Source: Shigella phage vB_SdyM_006. From it: 64,000 bases of DNA. This document shows, in pieces, positions 26,420-50,643 of this stretch. Location of the stretch: sequence record MK295204; one strand, given 5' to 3'. Within the stretch, counting starts at the first letter, position 1, and each line of letters opens with the position of its first letter. The position numbers and the translations under genes were made by a program. Below the pieces are notes generated by a model. That model saw nothing but the letters and a program-made list of their open reading frames with translations, had not been told where the DNA came from and did no database searches.

Positions 26420-28483
26420 TTAAATAATAAATTTTTCTGGGACAAAAGTAAGATCAACAGCTGTTGATAATAATTCTAGCCCTTTTTGACTAATTTTACC
26501 AGTATTTTCTTTTAAGAATTCTTTAAACCCAATTTTTTCGATTTTTCCTTCAGATAAAAACTTATTTCCGTCAATAAGTTCGCTTTCATCTAGTAATTCT
26601 GGATCCACTACAGATGTTTCTACTAATATTGGTCTATTAAATTCTATATCACGAGCGTTTTCATAACCGTGGATAGAATGAATCTTAAGAGCTAAACCTC
26701 TAGGTAAAATCACCTCGCATTCACTAGAGTATTTTGACATATTACCAGGAATAATAACATTGACTTTATGTGCACCTTTAATAGTTATACCCATAGAAAT
26801 GTTAATATCTGTTTTCTTAGTTGCTTTCTTACCATTAACGGCTACACCAATATTTTTTGGTGTCATAACTGTTGATATAACATCATCGAATGTTTCGGAT
26901 TCAAAAGTTACTGTAGTCGCGTTAGGTTTAATATTATCAAGAACATCATTTCGTTCCCCAAAAATAATTGGAGCTAATGAAGTCGAAATATAATTAGGAA
27001 AATATAATGTTTTATTTTTAGCAGCTTTTTCTACGTCGGCATAAGGTAATTTTTGTGCTCTATATAAAATAGTTCCTTTTTCTAACTTGGTTCCTTTTTT
27101 GAAGGCCCCATCTAAGACAGGAATTTTGTTTTCATACACAGATTTTAAACTTTTATCTTTACCAAGCAAAAAGTCGTTCATTTCTTCATATCCACGTAAA
27201 GCATAATCTGTGATAACTTTTCGCTCTTCTTCTGTTAAATCCATTTCTGTTTCGGTTCTAAATAACTCTTCTAAAGGAGTATAGAAAACATTTCTGTTTA
27301 AAGCAGAGATACAGCCTCTTAAAGCTCTAGTCTTAGCCACATTATCGTCAGGTCCATATGTTTCTAAATCTTCGGCTATTTTTTTGTAAACATCCATAGC
27401 ATTATTAGAAGTTTTGAGCGCATTGTTAATTATCAATATATACGGTTTTGCTAATTTATATTTTTCTTCACTAGATAAATGATAAAAATTTTCAACACCA
27501 TACCCAGATATGCGTTCTAAAGAATCTAATAAAAATCTAGCTTCTAGATCTGATTCTTCTTCACTCACGGCCGAATTTATTTTATCTAAAAACACAGATT
27601 TAGATTCATCAATTTTATTAAGGACATTTTTATGAACTAATGCAATTTTTGTAGAATCACTTTGGACAATAGGAGGATTATCTTGTAGTTCAATATATTT
27701 TCTTCTTCCTTCTTCAGAATAATTTTCTAAGTCTTCTGGTTTAGAAACACCATACATTGCTGATAATAATTCACGTCTAGAAACTTTAGTTTTTGAAATG
27801 ACAGATCGTTCACTTCTTGTGTTTTCTTGTGCTGCAATACTTCCTGCAATGGCTTCTAATTTAGACACTTGCTTGCCAGTTTTGTCATTGATATACACAT
27901 CACCTACTTTAGAATCGACTTTAGTATATAAGTCAGAATCAATACCAGGAATCCCAGCGATGTCTTCTAAAGGTCTGTTTTTACGATATATTAAAACATA
28001 AGCATGTTTACCTGTAAATTGATACAAATCTTCTAAGACAACAAATTTACCACCAGTACGTTGCATAGCCAGACGTTTGATTATTCTTTGTAATGTCTTT
28101 TCTTGGCCTTTCATTTTTTTAGCAGGGAATCTAAATAAAACTGCGTCCATTTTAAGTTTTTTAACTTGTTCGTATACAGTGTCAAAAATAGTATTCAATG
28201 CCCCAATAGGGTCTGAGCCTAAACCATTTCTTAATTCTGCTGCATTACCATTTTTAGACAAACTCATCAAAAACACTTGAACAAATTTATCACCTTGCTT
28301 TACTGCTTTTAATGCATCGCCTTTAGATAAATAAGACACCATTCTAACTAAAAGATTGTCATTTCCAGGAACACTGACATTCCATAATTGAGGGACCTTA
28401 GCCCTTTTATTAAGATTAATAGCTTTATATTGAGCTATTTCTGAATCAAAAACCTCATTTAAATTAATTTCATTTAATTCCAT
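26420..28483 (-). CDS. alt: Alt-like ADP-ribosyltransferase (packaged, R-S-ExE class)
   Basis: 687 aa vs 682 in T4; ART triad in order: LYRAQ (Arg), ISTSL (Ser-Thr-Ser), ECEVILPRG (Glu-x-Glu); TATAAATA late promoter upstream. Confidence 0.8.
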   Translation of the reverse strand: MELNEINLNEVFDSEIAQYKAINLNKRAKVPQLWNVSVPGNDNLLVRMVSYLSKGDALKAVKQGDKFVQVFLMSLSKNGNAAELRNGLGSDPIGALNTIFDTVYEQVKKLKMDAVLFRFPAKKMKGQEKTLQRIIKRLAMQRTGGKFVVLEDLYQFTGKHAYVLIYRKNRPLEDIAGIPGIDSDLYTKVDSKVGDVYINDKTGKQVSKLEAIAGSIAAQENTRSERSVISKTKVSRRELLSAMYGVSKPEDLENYSEEGRRKYIELQDNPPIVQSDSTKIALVHKNVLNKIDESKSVFLDKINSAVSEEESDLEARFLLDSLERISGYGVENFYHLSSEEKYKLAKPYILIINNALKTSNNAMDVYKKIAEDLETYGPDDNVAKTRALRGCISALNRNVFYTPLEELFRTETEMDLTEEERKVITDYALRGYEEMNDFLLGKDKSLKSVYENKIPVLDGAFKKGTKLEKGTILYRAQKLPYADVEKAAKNKTLYFPNYISTSLAPIIFGERNDVLDNIKPNATTVTFESETFDDVISTVMTPKNIGVAVNGKKATKKTDINISMGITIKGAHKVNVIIPGNMSKYSSECEVILPRGLALKIHSIHGYENARDIEFNRPILVETSVVDPELLDESELIDGNKFLSEGKIEKIGFKEFLKENTGKISQKGLELLSTAVDLTFVPEKFII

Positions 28484-28527: not shown

Positions 28528-28550
28528 AGGAGACCGAAGTCTCCTTGTTT
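28528..28550 (-). terminator. hairpin terminator (AGGAGAC-CGAA-GTCTCCT family)
   Basis: 7-bp stem, CGAA loop, T-run on minus strand; between cassette gene and alt late promoter. Confidence 0.6.
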
Positions 28551-29185: not shown

Positions 29186-29387
29186 AAATAATTTTTGATA
29201 AATCATCTTGTATTGCTAAGATTTTATGAAAATCTGATTCTCTTATAGGACAAGACTTATCTAACTTAAATGATATTAAAGAATTCATAAAGATAGATTC
29301 TATTTGTTCTTCTAAATCATCTATTAAAATATTCTTCTGGTGATTGTCCAAAGATTTCATAAAAGTCATTTGCCTCTTGTTTATCAA
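29184..29387 (-). CDS. hypothetical small ORF overlapping ligase 3' end
   Basis: 67 aa ORF; overlaps the ligase gene by at least 44 nt in another frame, so doubtful. Confidence 0.2.
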   Translation of the reverse strand: MINKRQMTFMKSLDNHQKNILIDDLEEQIESIFMNSLISFKLDKSCPIRESDFHKILAIQDDLSKII

Positions 29388-30789
29388 GACGTCTCATTTT
29401 AACACGTGGTAAAAATAAACTATATGTTTCTCGTCCATCAACTTTTTGAGCTGCATTACATACACCCGAGATAATCATACCGACAAGTTTACCTTTCTTA
29501 TGAAGATCCCATAATAAACGACGGTCTAATTCATGACGTTTATCGAGTGGAATCCAGATTTTTTCTTTTGAACCTTTTACCTTTTCGTAATCTTTATCCT
29601 TAAAACCAGAACCACAGTCAACTAAAATAGTCCCATCTCTAGACCTTAAATTGACACCACCTAATTTTTCAGGGTCTTTAGAATGTGGATACGCACCAAT
29701 AATTTCTAAATCAAAATCTTTTTCTTCTTTAAATTTTACTTGGTCACAAGTACGTCCATCAGACCAAACACCAAGTTTATTTTTTAGAATAATACCTTCT
29801 AACTTCATATCAACATATTTTCTGTAAATAACTTGGGCTTCTTCTAAAGTCTTAACTTCTTCTGATGGAATTAATTCTAAACGTCCTGCTTTTTTAGTAA
29901 TTAATTCTAAATTTTTTAACCTTTCTTTGTAAGGTTTATTAATTTCTGAATTATCAGTCTGTGTACCTTGTGTAACTTCATAGTTAATTAGATCCCAGAC
30001 CTGGAATTTAACACAATCTGCTTCGGTTTTTGAAATGGTTCCTTGGATTGATTTATTTGCAATACCGTTACCTTCTTCTCTAGAAGCAACAATATTTTCT
30101 TCTTCGTCTTCATCAAAGAATAAATCTAGACCTTGTTTTGTTGATTTAGGAAAATAAACTAGTTCACCATCAAGAACAACGTTTCCTAATCCTTCAGTGA
30201 TAGATACAATTTCTTCTTTTAGCAAATCTAGACCAAGATATTCGCTACCAGAACGAGAATATAAATTAACTTCCCCGTCTACAACTTCGGCAAAACATCT
30301 AGCACCATCTGCTTTAAGCTGAGCTAATGCTGGGAATTTAATTTTAGATACATTAGCTTTACTAAAAGGCGCTGCTAAAAACTGCGGCTGCTTTGGTAAT
30401 AAATTTTCCCATACTTTGTTTGGAATACTTCTTCCTACACCACATTCCAAGTCACGTTTGACAATGCGTTTAATTAATGCTGCATCTTTAGGGCATAAAC
30501 TTTCTAATACATCTTTTAAAGCAGCAATTGCAGCATGTCCTGTTAAAACCCGTTCACCTAAAACATTTTCTAAAAAATCTAAAGCGTCACGAAGTGTTTT
30601 AGATTCGGTTTTAGGTTCATATTCTGGAATCTTTTTAATATGGAATTTGACTCTTTGAGAATATGTTAATCTAAACACATCTTTTACTAATAAATTGTTT
30701 TTATATTTTAAAAGAATATTTTCTTTTTCTTTTAATGAATCCGTAGAAGCTAGTTCTACAATAATATCGTATACCATACCTTTTTCCAT
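29317..30789 (-). CDS. 30: ATP-dependent DNA ligase
   Basis: 490 aa vs 487 in T4; adenylation motif FPALAQLKADGARCFAEV, plus RDLECG and GLEGIILKN blocks. Confidence 0.93.
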   Translation of the reverse strand: MEKGMVYDIIVELASTDSLKEKENILLKYKNNLLVKDVFRLTYSQRVKFHIKKIPEYEPKTESKTLRDALDFLENVLGERVLTGHAAIAALKDVLESLCPKDAALIKRIVKRDLECGVGRSIPNKVWENLLPKQPQFLAAPFSKANVSKIKFPALAQLKADGARCFAEVVDGEVNLYSRSGSEYLGLDLLKEEIVSITEGLGNVVLDGELVYFPKSTKQGLDLFFDEDEEENIVASREEGNGIANKSIQGTISKTEADCVKFQVWDLINYEVTQGTQTDNSEINKPYKERLKNLELITKKAGRLELIPSEEVKTLEEAQVIYRKYVDMKLEGIILKNKLGVWSDGRTCDQVKFKEEKDFDLEIIGAYPHSKDPEKLGGVNLRSRDGTILVDCGSGFKDKDYEKVKGSKEKIWIPLDKRHELDRRLLWDLHKKGKLVGMIISGVCNAAQKVDGRETYSLFLPRVKMRRLDKQEANDFYEIFGQSPEEYFNR

Positions 30790-30798
30790 TTATAGTCC

Positions 30799-31434
30799 TT
30801 ATTTTATACTATTTAATGATTCTTCTAAGTCTGGTAAAATGGATTCAAAATCATACCAGTCTTTAACATTGATAATAGGACAATCTGGCAAATCACGTTG
30901 TCCACGTGGCATATGAATCAAAGGTAGTCTCGAAATAACTTTATGACAATCTTCAAGATTATGAGCCAAATCATCAACAAAACATAAAAGATTTTTAGTG
31001 TGTTTAACTTTAACATCTAAATAATGAGGAGTTTTAGATTCACCATAATTCACAAGTAAAATATCACTAAATGCATTAGGAAATAAAGAATTCAAATTAT
31101 ATAACCGATTAAACAATGCCTGGTTAGTAGTTCCTAAAGCTGTGATAGCAACAAATTCATACTTATGTTTAAGCCTATTAATGACTTCAATGGCATCAGT
31201 ATATCCAGTTAGATACTTAATATATTTTGAGTTATTGTATTCCGTCATTAATTTTAAGCCAAGTTCTTCATTACAACGGAACATTTCGCCTGGCGACATA
31301 AAAACATTTTCTGTGATAACTCTTAAAATATTTGATGTATCAATACCATAATCTTGTGCAAAATAAGGAAGTCCAGATGCCCACTGGACTAAAATGCCAT
31401 CAACGTCAGTTAAAATAACAGGTTTTACTTGCAT
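30799..31434 (-). CDS. HAD-superfamily phosphatase, nucleotidase-like
   Basis: N-terminal HAD motif I VILTDVDGILV; 211 aa. Confidence 0.55.
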   Translation of the reverse strand: MQVKPVILTDVDGILVQWASGLPYFAQDYGIDTSNILRVITENVFMSPGEMFRCNEELGLKLMTEYNNSKYIKYLTGYTDAIEVINRLKHKYEFVAITALGTTNQALFNRLYNLNSLFPNAFSDILLVNYGESKTPHYLDVKVKHTKNLLCFVDDLAHNLEDCHKVISRLPLIHMPRGQRDLPDCPIINVKDWYDFESILPDLEESLNSIK

Positions 31435-31877
31435 TATGCATCCTCATATTTAATTGCCATAAGAGCCTTTTTAGTGAATTCGTAGATGTCAATATTTTTA
31501 ACACCTTGGCTTAAAATAGATTCCACTGTTTTATCAAGAACTGGCTTAATAAAAGGTCCTTGAAGATTCATTGTTCCAGTTCTATCTTTAAATGCGATAA
31601 CGAATTTACGATCGACCCAATTATTTTTGGGTTCAAGATTTTCTATTTTTTCAAAATAACCATGTTCATCAACGTCAATAATAAACGCTACTGTAAAATC
31701 GTCTTCGGTTAAAGTTTCGTCACCACATTTAAGTTTTTTGACATGTCCACTTTCGTCAAGTTCAATAACTTTAAATGGGCTATTTGAGATAGCATTAGCA
31801 ATACGTTCATTAGAATAATTTTCATCAACAAATCCGTCAATGTCAATTAATTTATACCAACCATTTAATTCAAACAT
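31434..31877 (-). CDS. hypothetical protein (paralogue of next gene)
   Basis: 147 aa; shares Y-x-LI, YS-x-E-I and NPFKV-x-L motifs with 31885..32337. Confidence 0.45.
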   Translation of the reverse strand: MFELNGWYKLIDIDGFVDENYSNERIANAISNSPFKVIELDESGHVKKLKCGDETLTEDDFTVAFIIDVDEHGYFEKIENLEPKNNWVDRKFVIAFKDRTGTMNLQGPFIKPVLDKTVESILSQGVKNIDIYEFTKKALMAIKYEDA

Positions 31878-31884
31878 AGTATTC

Positions 31885-32337
31885 TCACTTAAAAGTAATA
31901 GATTGGGTGATTTCAGCAGTTTTATCTAAAGTATACATTTCAACTTTACCAGTAGGATTTTTTGTTAAAAATGCTTCGATACTTTTATGTGCTGATTCTT
32001 CATCTAGAGGAACTGAAGAAGTTTCTACACCGTTTAAAATTTGGACTAAAACTACACGGGCTGACGGGACTACAACTTCATTAAAATACTCCACTTCATA
32101 TTTAGAAATCACCACTGTTAATTGAGAGTCAAAATCAGAAGGTGTGTATTCTTTTCCGTTAATTGAAATTAAAACAACATCACGATTGCCAGGCCCAAGA
32201 GCTAAAACTTTAAAAGGATTTTTCCCAATAAGGTTATAAATTTTTTCATTATATGCCGAGTACTCTTTAAACTCGTGTTCATTGATAAGTTGATAAGATT
32301 TACCGATTTCAAATTCAAAAGCTGTTTTAGTTTTCAT
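31885..32337 (-). CDS. hypothetical protein (paralogue of previous gene)
   Basis: 150 aa; paralogue of 31434..31877. Confidence 0.45.
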   Translation of the reverse strand: MKTKTAFEFEIGKSYQLINEHEFKEYSAYNEKIYNLIGKNPFKVLALGPGNRDVVLISINGKEYTPSDFDSQLTVVISKYEVEYFNEVVVPSARVVLVQILNGVETSSVPLDEESAHKSIEAFLTKNPTGKVEMYTLDKTAEITQSITFK

Positions 32338-32338
32338 A

Positions 32339-32659
32339 TTAGGACCTTATTTTTAAGATTGTTTTCATTGCAGCAACTAATGGTTTTTTATCCTCAACCC
32401 AGTCATCACAACATAAATTTTCATTATCGAAATTATTGTATCTAGAACCTAGACAATGTAAACCGATAAATGTATCATTTGATGTTTTTGTTACACTGAT
32501 ATCATGGTCTAACATTAAGACCCAAGCTTGATTAATATTATTACATGGATCAAATTTTAAGCCATTAATATAAACAAATAACTTAAACCCTTGGTTTTCT
32601 ACTGTGTATTCATACCCAAGACTTTTAGCTAGTTCAATATTAATATCAAGTTCAGTCAT
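32339..32659 (-). CDS. hypothetical protein
   Basis: 106 aa ORF with FDPCNN motif; 4-nt overlap with upstream NADAR-like gene. Confidence 0.45.
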   Translation of the reverse strand: MTELDINIELAKSLGYEYTVENQGFKLFVYINGLKFDPCNNINQAWVLMLDHDISVTKTSNDTFIGLHCLGSRYNNFDNENLCCDDWVEDKKPLVAAMKTILKIRS

Positions 32660-33093
32660 AACCGTCTCCTTAAAGATGTCAATATACCACAGAATTCTTG
32701 GTTTGTTAATATAGTTTCGAACTTATTTTCGCATCCTATAGTATGAACTAATGTTTTATCGCCTGTTGCTCTCAGAGCATCTCTGAATGATTTATTCTGA
32801 TTAAACATATGAATATATGCTCTGACTAGTAAACGTTTGTAGGCTTCACTGTGACGATTAATAGGGCATCCATTATACCACATAGTGTCATTTTTCATTT
32901 TAGGACCAGCTAATTTGGCCTTTAATCCATGCAGTTTAAACACTTCAGATTGTTCTTTAGGGTCTTTAATTTTTAATCCTTGTAAAAATCCTTCTATACT
33001 GCCAAAGAGCTGATTGTCCATTTTAAAAGGATGCTCAGCAAAATTACTTAAAGCACATGAAGGCCAAGGGCCTCTAGAATGAATATCAATCAT
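32656..33093 (-). CDS. NADAR-like (YbiA-type) putative ADP-ribose glycohydrolase
   Basis: 145 aa; LSNFAEHPFKMDNQLFGSIEGFLQGLKI aligns with the YbiA core FSNFA-x-PI-x-DG-x3-TSEHYFQAQKF. Confidence 0.55.
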   Translation of the reverse strand: MIDIHSRGPWPSCALSNFAEHPFKMDNQLFGSIEGFLQGLKIKDPKEQSEVFKLHGLKAKLAGPKMKNDTMWYNGCPINRHSEAYKRLLVRAYIHMFNQNKSFRDALRATGDKTLVHTIGCENKFETILTNQEFCGILTSLRRRL

Positions 33094-33107
33094 ATATCCT
33101 CTAAACC

Positions 33108-33130
33108 AAAAAAGGAGACCGGAGTCTCCT
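33108..33130 (-). terminator. hairpin terminator 20 nt upstream of NADAR-like gene start
   Basis: AGGAGAC-CGGA-GTCTCCT with T-run on minus strand. Confidence 0.55.
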
Positions 33131-33137
33131 TAATCAT

Positions 33138-33374
33138 TTATAGTGTCACCAAATCCAAGATACGCTCTATTTGGTCAATAATTGCTTTGCCAGAGTCATT
33201 ATCGTAAACAAACTTTGTTAATGCTATATTTCTTATAGTAGTTGTTTTTGCTAATTCTTTAAGATCGTTATTAAAGAAATAAAGTGCGTCGGCTTCATTG
33301 TCGAAATACTTATTATAAACCTTTTTTTCTTTAACAATTCTGTATACTAAATTATATTGAGTTGATGTTGACAT
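33138..33374 (-). CDS. hypothetical early protein
   Basis: 78 aa; early promoter upstream, hairpin terminator downstream. Confidence 0.45.
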   Translation of the reverse strand: MSTSTQYNLVYRIVKEKKVYNKYFDNEADALYFFNNDLKELAKTTTIRNIALTKFVYDNDSGKAIIDQIERILDLVTL

Positions 33375-33402
33375 TTTAGACCTCCGTTATTAATTGTGAT
33401 CT

Positions 33403-33432
33403 ATAATATCCTTTTTTAAAAGAGAAGTAAAC
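33403..33432 (-). promoter_or_regulatory. early promoter (GTTTAC-N18-TATTAT)
   Basis: Minus-strand GTTTAC (plus 33427-33432) and TATTAT (plus 33403-33408) upstream of gene 33138..33374. Confidence 0.45.
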
Positions 33433-33450
33433 ACTTATTTTCAATAAAAC

Positions 33451-33474
33451 CAAAAAAGGAGACCGAAGTCTCCT
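33451..33474 (-). terminator. hairpin terminator (AGGAGAC-CGAA-GTCTCCT family)
   Basis: Same stem as 28528 copy; T-run on minus strand. Confidence 0.6.
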
Positions 33475-33479
33475 TAAAT

Positions 33480-33614
33480 TTATTTCTTGTTTCCTAAATT
33501 AGCTAAAAACTTAGCTCGCCCATTTTCTTGTCGTTTAACAAATCCAACCAGTTTGTCTAGGTCTTGGTTAATACGTTTATTTGTTTTTCGTTTGTAACCT
33601 TTACGTGCGGACAT
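33480..33614 (-). CDS. small basic protein, 44 aa
   Basis: My own translation: MSARKGYKRKTNKRINQDLDKLVGFVKRQENGRAKFLANLGNKK; below ORF-track cutoff. Confidence 0.3.
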   Translation of the reverse strand: MSARKGYKRKTNKRINQDLDKLVGFVKRQENGRAKFLANLGNKK

Positions 33615-33623
33615 AGTAATTCC

Positions 33624-33869
33624 TTATTTCAATGTAACAATATAATGACGAACAGCTTTACGTGCATTAGAACTTAAATGCTTAGCATATTTTAAATTAT
33701 CATTTTCGATAAGCTCTTGGTGAAGATTTTTTTGTTCTGGATTTAAGTGTTTAAAACCTTCAAGAACTTTAAGTGCTTCAGCCAGAACATCGATTGATGC
33801 ACCATAGTTTTCATGGCCATTTTGGAAAGAATTACGTTGGATATCTAAAATTGTTTTTACAAAAGTCAT
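33624..33869 (-). CDS. hypothetical protein
   Basis: 81 aa ORF upstream of gene 31 region. Confidence 0.4.
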   Translation of the reverse strand: MTFVKTILDIQRNSFQNGHENYGASIDVLAEALKVLEGFKHLNPEQKNLHQELIENDNLKYAKHLSSNARKAVRHYIVTLK

Positions 33870-33900
33870 AGATGCCTCAAAAATGCGAGGTTAATATTTA

Positions 33901-33917
33901 GTGGTCATAATGACCAC
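33901..33917. promoter_or_regulatory. 17-bp perfect palindrome GTGGTCAT-A-ATGACCAC
   Basis: Exact palindrome in the intergenic region downstream of gene 31; no adjacent T-run. Confidence 0.3.
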
Positions 33918-33942
33918 CGGTTTAGAACACATGTTCATATAG

Positions 33943-34260
33943 TTATTTATACACTGCTGCAATAGATTTATAATGAGCAGTAATAAATTTTATTGGGAAT
34001 TCACTAGCTTTTTTATCATTAAAAACAGTTTCTGGATGAGGAACATTACGCATGTTACCTGTAGGTAAAGGGACCTTATCACCGATCTCAAAATAACCTT
34101 GAGGAACACAATCACCAATGGCATAAATTTCACCATATTGTGGTAATTCACCTTGTTGACGAACACCAATAACAATACCTGAAGCCGAAACTTCTTCGGT
34201 CCCAGCTGATTCTGCTTTTGCTGCTATAATAACGCTTTCACCTAATGCTTTAATATCCAT
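33943..34260 (-). CDS. 31: head assembly co-chaperonin (GroES-like)
   Basis: 105 aa vs 111 in T4; GNMRNVPHP and FITAHYKSIAAVYK align with T4 gp31 (IRNVPHP, FVTCHYKAIPCLYK). Confidence 0.85.
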   Translation of the reverse strand: MDIKALGESVIIAAKAESAGTEEVSASGIVIGVRQQGELPQYGEIYAIGDCVPQGYFEIGDKVPLPTGNMRNVPHPETVFNDKKASEFPIKFITAHYKSIAAVYK

Positions 34261-34589
34261 TAAACCAACCTTAAAATGTCTTCATACTTCATAGAATTAA
34301 CAGAAATAATTGATTCTGTTGTAATAGAACGCCATGCATTAATCTCTGTATCAAATACTCGGATATATGATGGTGTTTTTGTTTCTTTTTCTGTTAAAGG
34401 TTTAGAACTATCTTGTTTAGGATGATGTTCTTCAGGAATAATATCATAATCTAGTGTACAGCGAATAACTCTAATAGAACCATCTTTTTTAGTAAAAACA
34501 ATTTCATTTTTACCATTATGTAGTAAGGTTTTAATTAAAGCAGTTAATTTAGCTTTTCTTTCTTCTGTAAGTTTCATTTTACACCACAA
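34260..34589 (-). CDS. conserved hypothetical protein
   Basis: 109 aa ORF between cd and gene 31. Confidence 0.45.
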   Translation of the reverse strand: MWCKMKLTEERKAKLTALIKTLLHNGKNEIVFTKKDGSIRVIRCTLDYDIIPEEHHPKQDSSKPLTEKETKTPSYIRVFDTEINAWRSITTESIISVNSMKYEDILRLV

Positions 34590-35125
34590 TAGTTAGTTAT
34601 AGTAGACCAATCAATATGATTGAGATTAGAACGCTCATATTTAATAACTTCAATTCCAGAATCTAATAAAATCTGGTCCCATCCAGGAACATTGCGATCA
34701 TATGTTTCTGCATAAACAAGTTTTTTAATACCAGATTGAGCAATCGCTTTAGCACAATCAGGACATGGCGATAATGTTACATACATTGTTCCGCCATCAA
34801 TAGAAATACCATTACGAGCAGCAAAAATAATTGCATTTAATTCTGCATGGATTTCATGTTTAGAAGACCATGCATTATGTTGCTCACGGAATTCCATATT
34901 TAATCCTGTAATAGTTTTAGGACGAGGACCTGGAACAATAATAGGTTTAGTCCAACCTTTTTCTGCTGCATGGTCGCAGCAATTGACGCCACCAGTAGGA
35001 GAACCATTATAACCAGTAGAAATGATTCTTCCACCTTTTTCAATAACAGCACCAACTTTCCAAGAAACACATTTAGATTCTTGAGAAATGATATAAGCAA
35101 GTTGGAGATATGTCGAAGCTTTCAT
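34574..35125 (-). CDS. cd: dCMP deaminase
   Basis: 183 aa; N-terminus MKASTYLQLAYIISQESKC-SWKVGAVIEK-GRIISTGYNGSP nearly identical to T4 Cd; zinc motifs HAELNAI and PCPDCAKAI. Confidence 0.93.
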   Translation of the reverse strand: MKASTYLQLAYIISQESKCVSWKVGAVIEKGGRIISTGYNGSPTGGVNCCDHAAEKGWTKPIIVPGPRPKTITGLNMEFREQHNAWSSKHEIHAELNAIIFAARNGISIDGGTMYVTLSPCPDCAKAIAQSGIKKLVYAETYDRNVPGWDQILLDSGIEVIKYERSNLNHIDWSTITNYCGVK

Positions 35126-50572: not shown

Positions 50573-50601
50573 ATAATATCACGCTAAAAATCTTTGTAAA
50601 C
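50573..50601 (-). promoter_or_regulatory. early promoter (AAATAAATGTTTAC-N17-TATTAT)
   Basis: Minus-strand GTTTAC (plus 50596-50601), 17-nt spacer, TATTAT (plus 50573-50578); follows the gene 32 terminator. Confidence 0.55.
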
Positions 50602-50620
50602 ATTTATTTTCTATAAAACC

Positions 50621-50643
50621 AAAAAAGGAACCCGAAGGTTCCT
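50621..50643 (-). terminator. terminator after gene 32 (AGGAACC-CGAA-GGTTCCT)
   Basis: Hairpin then T-run on minus strand, directly followed by an early promoter. Confidence 0.65.

Follow-up and report, generated by a model that had tools for sequence, protein, structure and literature searches.

An ortholog of T4 gene 30.3 (adfN) in a Bragavirus-type phage: a likely guanine-ADP-ribose counter-defence enzyme behind a terminator-like hairpin

NADAR enzymes and the DarTG systems

The product of T4 gene 30.3 was assigned to the NADAR superfamily on bioinformatic grounds by de Souza & Aravind (as cited in PMC11543638), and Iyer et al. 2022 likewise placed it there. Purified T4 gp30.3 hydrolyses guanine-ADP-ribose (guanine-ADPr) and not thymine-ADPr (PMC11125620; Toxins 2024), and no hydrolysis of cytidine-ADPr by the T4 NADAR was found (PMC12945103). 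Johannesman et al. (Nat Commun 2025, PMC11825919) renamed the protein AdfN, for anti-DarT factor NADAR. It was shown that expression of adfN-T4 restores the plaquing of RB69 on DarTG1, that T4-GT7 without adfN becomes DarTG1-sensitive, and that AdfN-T4 strips ADP-ribose from DarT1-modified DNA in vitro (PMC11825919). The substitutions E36A and K43A and a C-terminal truncation each impair AdfN-T4, and the RB69 allele, in which the C-terminal helix is lost, has reduced activity (PMC11825919). AdfN-T4 fully works only in T-even infection (PMC11825919), and DarT1 toxicity in uninfected cells is not rescued by it (PMC11825919, PMC11125620).

Related NADARs differ in clade and in role. DarG1 (G. lovleyi 8BAT, E. 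coli C7) is the BC4488-family NADAR antitoxin of DarTG1. AdfN-Bas32 and AdfN-Bas60 belong to other NADAR clades, were independently co-opted, and need no phage infection to neutralise DarT1 (PMC11825919). The residue on the last strand tells the subfamilies apart: phage NADARs carry a His there, in contrast to the Glu of YbiA and the Asp of DarG1 (PMC11543638, PMC11125620). On the side of DarTG2, gp104 of phiKZ is the anti-DarTG2 macrodomain AdfM (PMC13309987), which in the literature examined is known from chimalliviruses.

Here, a stretch of phage DNA of 64,000 nucleotides (hereafter the window) was analysed around a minus-strand ATG-to-stop ORF of 145 aa (Table 1), whose position was given correctly, without a strand, in the first-pass annotation of this DNA. 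Sequence comparison assigns the window to a Proteus T4-like phage of the genus Bragavirus, outside the Tevenvirinae. In megablast searches, window positions 31000-35000 were 98.7% identical to the Proteus phage phiP4-3 (Straboviridae, Bragavirus) at 100% query coverage, 98.4% identical to SJ_PmiM, and about 87% identical to PM2 and Pm5461 across 59% of the query. The 145-aa protein itself is 100% identical to the SJ_PmiM product, 98.6% identical to that of phiP4-3, and 77% identical to the 30.3 homolog of Pm5461; the current label of the gene in phiP4-3 and SJ_PmiM is "hypothetical protein".

Table 1. Features of the window discussed in the text (coordinates are window positions)
Feature	Position	Strand	Basis and remarks
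Macro-domain ORF, 144 aa	11803..12237	-	Pfam Macro 21.5 bits vs cut-off 22; PADLOC DarG E=1.5e-18
Alt-type ADP-ribosyltransferase	26420..28483	-	ADPrib_exo_Tox E=1.7e-14
DNA ligase	29317..30789
gp30.2 homolog	30799..31434	-	Synteny anchor; tblastn with RB51 gp30.2, 43% identity, E=7e-57
Two tandem paralogs, 147 and 150 aa	31434..31877 and 31885..32337	-	phrog_3710; between adfN and the 30.2 homolog
NinX/DUF2591-like ORF, 106 aa	32339..32659	-	phrog_444 E=3.5e-17
adfN / gene 30.3 ortholog	32656..33093	-	145-aa phage-type NADAR, predicted guanine-ADP-ribose DNA glycohydrolase
C-terminal helix, model residues 131-144	32659..32703	-	AlphaFold2 model; needed for full T4 AdfN activity
H117	32743..32745	-	Aligned to YbiA Glu125 in phmmer alignment; invariant in the 75-sequence alignment A2
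NADAR core motif, residues 15-42 (LSNF...SIEGFLQGLK)	32968..33051	-	Carries catalytic E34 and K41
Shine-Dalgarno (SD) GAGG	33098..33101	-	4 nt 5' of the adfN ATG, read from sequence
Terminator-like hairpin and U-run ("half PeSL")	33101..33131	-	Pattern scan, fold, alignment to full PeSL copies
78-aa ORF	33138..33374	-	phrog_21205; between two hairpins; first gene of PeSL-driven unit
Complete PeSL	33403..33475	-	Hairpin 33475..33456, then early-type promoter TTTACT-17-TATTAT at 33431..33403
rIII	33624..33869
gp31 co-chaperonin	33943..34260

Family, fold, and active site of the 145-aa protein

The gene belongs to the already published gp30.3/AdfN family and is an ortholog of a known counter-defence enzyme. 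The best Pfam match was PF08010 (Phage_30_3, "Bacteriophage protein GP30.3"; E=1.2e-42, 145.4 bits vs a cut-off of 36), which spans profile positions 2-137 of 138, that is, nearly end to end. The family phrog_652 was also matched (E=6e-46), the protein covering only positions 128-272 of the 296 in that profile. Over its full length, the protein is 48% identical to gp30.3 of the T4-type phage RB51, and it clusters with the T4-type NADARs. Homologs were found by tblastn in 1,506 phage records, mostly of T4-like phages, with hosts mostly in Escherichia, Klebsiella, Shigella, Aeromonas, Acinetobacter, and Vibrio; one of these homologs, that of RB51, carries the explicit annotation "30.3: gp30.3". 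An exhaustive HMMER scan delivered 1,102 representatives of 50%-identity clusters that match at E<=1e-3, and fusions to other domains are frequent among them. Many gp30.3-family representatives are far longer (250-761 aa, e.g., P0018, P0021, and P0148), and such long representatives have N- or C-terminal extensions or two to three matched stretches, a pattern that points to NADAR repeats in tandem or to fusions. The PADLOC search with the NADAR ORF gave a weak match only (PDC-M42C, E=0.005).

The first-pass annotation had called the protein NADAR-like and of the YbiA type, and only the first half of that description stands. The generic NADAR model PF08719, the profile proposed there as a check, was matched at E=9.6e-6 over residues 11-118 only, and the score of 26.4 bits lies under the 35.1-bit gathering threshold; the C-terminal third of the protein diverges from generic NADARs. 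Placement in the NADAR superfamily is based on the fold and PF08010, whose score is far above its cut-off. The YbiA subfamily (TIGR02464 equivalog) was rejected, as the score reached 27.1 bits vs a cut-off of 73.7 and His117 stands in place of the Glu that defines the subfamily. The protein sits in a separate phage gp30.3/AdfN clade (PF08010), for which the label "YbiA-type" is imprecise.

On the sequence level, links to solved NADAR structures are weak (YbiA, 2b3w, alone, at E=0.002-0.006), so that a fold comparison was needed. The 75-sequence alignment was built and then used for an AlphaFold2 model, which reached a mean pLDDT of 97.9 and a pTM of 0.92 and which has the NADAR (YbiA-like) alpha+beta fold, core only and without extensions; the structure prediction suggested by the first-pass annotation thus yielded the NADAR core. 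The segment LSNFAEHPFKMDNQLFGSIEGFLQGLKI, which that annotation had aligned with the conserved core, corresponds to residues 15-42 and holds both E34 and K41. These two residues align with E36 and K43 of T4 AdfN and with E43 and K50 of PnNADAR, and the catalytic residues, whose absence had been named as the observation that would speak against a NADAR, are hence in place. Across 169 homologs, conservation amounts to 97% for E34, 91% for K41, 96% for R80, and 96% for H117, and all highly conserved family positions are kept in the 145-aa protein. The ORF is full length, has no frameshift of the RB69 type, and its alignment reaches the last residue of T4-type gp30.3. Together, the intact catalytic residues, the fold, and the C-terminal helix argue for a canonical and apparently active phage-clade NADAR, not for a YbiA-type enzyme.

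The likeness to T4 AdfN extends from family, identity, and size (145 vs 152 aa) to the core-only NADAR fold with its catalytic Glu and Lys, phage-type His, and intact C-terminal helix, and also to the neighbourhood of gp31/rIII on one side and 30.2/ligase/alt on the other. The difference lies in the setting, as the host genus here is Proteus and the phage genus, Bragavirus, falls outside the Tevenvirinae. In comparison with DarG1, the Asp of the antitoxin is replaced by His, and the N-terminal beta1-beta2-alpha1 DNA-groove extension of DarG1 is absent: the conserved core motif begins at residue 15 of the 145-aa protein, and of the 219 residues of 8bat 126 were aligned. DarG1 is moreover an antitoxin, whereas AdfN-T4 is without antitoxin action in uninfected cells. 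The immediate neighbours of adfN are the 78-aa ORF and the NinX-like ORF, neither with an ADP-ribosyltransferase (ART) domain. No DarT1 gene adjoins adfN, the nearest ART being Alt (ADPrib_exo_Tox), about 4 kb away, and the window NADAR is therefore an orphan. In this it resembles AdfN-Bas32 and AdfN-Bas60, orphan NADARs removing guanine-ADPr, with which it would have the counter-defence strategy in common. A homolog of AdfA (T4 gp61.2) was not found by tblastn within the 64-kb window (E<=0.01).

Gene neighbourhood, hairpin, and expression

The T4-type gene order is kept in the window, running from gp31 and rIII through small ORFs to 30.3, the 30.2 homolog, the ligase, and alt. In T4, the start of 30.3 is overlapped by 30.4 and its stop by 30.2, the gene directly after it; in the window, the gene comes after a hairpin and is separated from 30.2 by three genes specific to the lineage, namely the NinX/DUF2591-like ORF and the two goF-like paralogs. 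The latter are weakly similar to goF (mRNA metabolism modulator) families. In SJ_PmiM, about 640 bp more than in the window, comprising two small ORFs, are found between the goF-like genes. The ATG of the NinX-like ORF overlaps the adfN stop as ATGA, an overlap that suggests translational coupling of the two genes, with translation probably running on from adfN into the NinX-like ORF. Homologs of the NinX-like ORF were found in Proteus and Providencia phages only, where they are annotated as NinX or DUF2591, and the ORF may thus be a host-genus-specific accessory gene that was horizontally acquired into the 30.3-30.2 gap. These homologs include genes of unrelated phages of about 40-55 kb, at 29-49% identity.

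Directly upstream of adfN, the hairpin AAGGAGAC-TCCG-GTCTCCTT at 33131..33112 (minus strand) is followed by TTTTTTGGTTT, leaving 18 nt between the end of the stem and the ATG at 33093. It consists of an 8-bp stem with 4 GC pairs, a UCCG loop, and a subsequent U6GGU3 run, which is the sequence pattern of a rho-independent terminator. The core GGAGAC-N4-GTCTCC occurs in 3 copies in the window, vs 0.03 expected, with stems at 33131..33112, 33475..33456, and 28529..28544. The fold energy of the adfN hairpin is unremarkable (z-score -1.67 in a 66 nt context), and the hairpin is supported instead by where it lies and by being exactly repeated. A known RNA family at this site was rejected, the Rfam matches being sub-threshold only (PhrS, 23-26 bits vs 37; BSR0709) and reflecting terminator-like stems.

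The repeated element corresponds to the promoter-early stem-loop (PeSL), a terminator/promoter cassette of T4-type phages that has been linked to gene shuffling (Arbiol 2010; Comeau 2014). As in the described cassettes, a stem-loop with UNCG loop and U-run is followed by TTTACW-N17-TAYWAT, an SD, and an ATG, and the element is repeated in the intergenic spaces of variable early regions. The hairpin at 33475 and its promoter, which fits the PST/T4 PeSL consensus TTTACW-N17-TAYWAT (PMC4122927), are followed by the SD and ATG of the 78-aa ORF. A further full copy lies near 50640 (~50640..50575, minus strand); its stem is a different one, GGAACC/GGTTCC, that still pairs, and its loop is UUCG, with flanks and promoter like those of the other copies. 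The adfN-proximal copy differs in being the stem-loop half only, without -35 and -10 boxes; degraded "half" PeSLs of this kind have been described (PMC4122927). For the PeSL-like family as a whole, the pattern can be written as AAGGNNNC-TYCG-GNNNCCTT, a U-run, and TTTAC(T/A)-17-TATTAT. In the PeSL-like copy before alt (28529..28544), the early promoter is replaced by a perfect late-promoter box, TATAAATA.

At the counterpart site of Pm5461, a complete PeSL is found, the -10 box of which was annotated by the Pm5461 authors. In that phage, a 163-aa ORFan (phrog_32386; 2323..2814 of L003, minus strand) follows the PeSL and overlaps the start of the 30.3 homolog. Both the full PeSL and the ORFan of Pm5461 are absent from the window phage, which makes the hairpin site an indel between sister phages. 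T4-type phages have no hairpin at the start of 30.3 because 30.4 overlaps it there. With an arrangement that is so lineage-specific, the hairpin is therefore not a conserved regulatory device of adfN; it marks a PeSL-associated indel, at which PeSL-mediated recombination presumably took place.

The first-pass annotation had reported a terminator hairpin 20 nt upstream of the start codon and had seen in it a sign of separate expression control. The hairpin is there, at 18 nt, while the separate control finds no promoter before the ATG to act through. No sigma70-like site was found on the minus strand between the ATG at 33093 and 33373..33431, so a promoter of its own was rejected for adfN, and no MotA box (TGCTT) was seen between that ATG and the promoter region at 33373..33431. 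The late-promoter-like TATAAATG at 33142..33135 was not relied on: it matches at 7/8 positions only and overlaps the upstream stop codon, and TATAAAT occurs 62 times in this window of 32% GC. The nearest upstream promoter that should be able to transcribe adfN, by read-through, is that of the complete PeSL, and adfN is most likely expressed in this way, either from this promoter or from promoters further upstream. If it terminates at all, the hairpin would imply attenuated read-through expression, not independent control.

Predicted function, competing readings, and the macrodomain

The gene is read here as the ortholog of T4 gene 30.3 (adfN) that acts as a guanine-ADP-ribose counter-defence, and we assign a probability of roughly 0.78 to this reading. 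Its product would likely be a NADAR-superfamily enzyme that, by analogy with T4 AdfN, removes ADP-ribose from guanine in DNA. According to the proposed mechanism, a host DarT1 toxin would ADP-ribosylate guanines in the phage DNA and thereby block replication. The phage would produce the small, core-only NADAR encoded by adfN, in which a pocket of the conserved Glu34, Lys41, Arg80, and His117 would hold the ADP-ribose. The N-glycosidic ribose-guanine bond would then be cut and the bases restored, and replication could go on in DarTG1-carrying hosts. We infer this mechanism for the window ORF by transfer from T4 AdfN to a 48%-identical protein outside the Tevenvirinae, and likewise that Proteus hosts exert DarT1-type pressure. 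A literature search for DarTG in Proteus returned one report only, from Morganella, in which the subtype is unstated.

Against an AdfN-like function it can be held that 52% of the residues differ from T4-type gp30.3. Furthermore, since AdfN-T4 is fully active only in T-even infection and does not rescue uninfected cells, a cofactor may be needed for AdfN, and the window phage is a Bragavirus and not a member of the Tevenvirinae. The terminator-like hairpin without a downstream promoter could also keep adfN expression low.

The enzyme might be an active NADAR with a different substrate, such as guanine-ADPr in RNA, the adducts of other guanine toxins (ScARP/pierisin-like or YarT-like), or soluble ADPr immune signals. 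RNA guanine-ADPr was removed by all NADAR families tested, that of T4 included (PMC12945103), Iyer et al. 2022 saw the chief targets of phage NADARs in soluble ADPr derivatives of low molecular weight, and DarTG1 in Proteus is known from no report found. Nevertheless, we regard such a substrate as unlikely, as the genetic phenotype of the T4 ortholog is specifically the loss of DarTG1 resistance and a soluble-substrate activity of the phage NADAR clade has not been reported.

The first-pass annotation had placed the NADAR together with the macro domain and the Alt transferase into a multi-part "ADP-ribosylation toolkit", a reading in which adfN would erase the phage's own Alt/ModA/ModB-type ADP-ribosylation and tune or reverse phage-made modifications. 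An Alt-type ART is indeed encoded about 4 kb downstream on the strand shared with adfN, and the macro ORF is present as well. The linkage of adfN and alt is, however, simply conserved T4 synteny, and the Alt homolog of phiP4-3 is annotated "RNA polymerase ADP-ribosylase", an enzyme that modifies protein. NADARs cleave base N-glycosidic linkages in a base-specific manner (the T4 enzyme acts on G but on neither T nor C), and activity on protein-linked ADPr was reported nowhere in the literature examined. The components of the toolkit are thus real, while a writer/eraser set with Alt, a T4-type protein ADP-ribosyltransferase, is very improbable.

There is similarly little probability that adfN is a decayed or poorly expressed remnant, comparable to the frameshifted RB69 allele and silenced by the terminator directly upstream. 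The hairpin has a canonical look and no promoter after it, and RB69 sets the precedent that a weak allele can persist; yet the full-length ORF with all its catalytic and highly conserved residues and an SD, its conservation at 98.6-100% in phiP4-3 and SJ_PmiM and at 77% in Pm5461, and the fact that PeSL stem-loops are frequently found between early genes that T4-type phages do express all count against decay. The known role of YbiA lies in riboflavin-intermediate metabolism and swarming (E. coli YbiA, PDB 2B3W, has the subfamily-defining Glu where His117 stands here). That the 145-aa protein is a YbiA-type metabolic N-glycosidase clearing reactive riboflavin-pathway intermediates has next to no probability, the weak matches to TIGR02464 (E=4e-6) and to YbiA 2b3w (E=0.006) being outweighed by the failed equivalog score, the exchange of the Glu, and PF08010 as best family.

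The macro ORF fits with counter-defence. Its best sequence relatives in the PDB are DarG macrodomains (5M31/5M3E, 5M3I, and 7OMU), and it is 29% identical to phiKZ gp104 (pairwise E=2e-16), with N21 and K79 aligned to N23 and K78 of phiKZ. Judged by these alignments, it is a putative DarG2/AdfM-like protein with N21 and K79 as candidate active-site residues. The DarG-like evidence for the macro ORF and the AdfN family of the NADAR argue for parallel counter-defences and not for erasers of Alt: in the manner of orphan antitoxins, the NADAR seems directed against host DarT1 and the macro ORF against host DarT2, and the phage may counter DarTG1 and DarTG2 both, enzymatically. It is possible, although we would not give it even odds, that the phage carries orphan "antitoxin mimics" against both DarTG classes, an AdfN-type NADAR (guanine-ADPr, DarT1) and a macrodomain (thymine-ADPr, DarT2), amounting to dual enzymatic immunity. 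As part of this tentative proposal, the position of adfN at a PeSL recombination hotspot and its coupling to the Proteus-specific NinX-like gene suggest that its cofactor requirements may not be those of T4 AdfN.

The main value of these results is in annotation, as the gene can be named adfN (phage NADAR, predicted anti-DarTG1), where "hypothetical protein" is still the label in most of the matches listed among the 1,506 phage records. The understanding of NADAR enzymes is unchanged by the window gene. Two points are modestly new: both DarG-type hydrolases, by predicted function, are paired in one T4-like genome, and the adfN locus coincides with an indel hotspot associated with PeSLs. Where a candidate for Proteus phage therapy has both an intact adfN and an AdfM-like macrodomain, resistance to DarTG-type abortive defences of Morganellaceae hosts would be predicted. 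Homologs of the macro ORF were found in 115 phage records, only 3 of which are Escherichia phages, and the macro gene is thus uncommon in coliphages.
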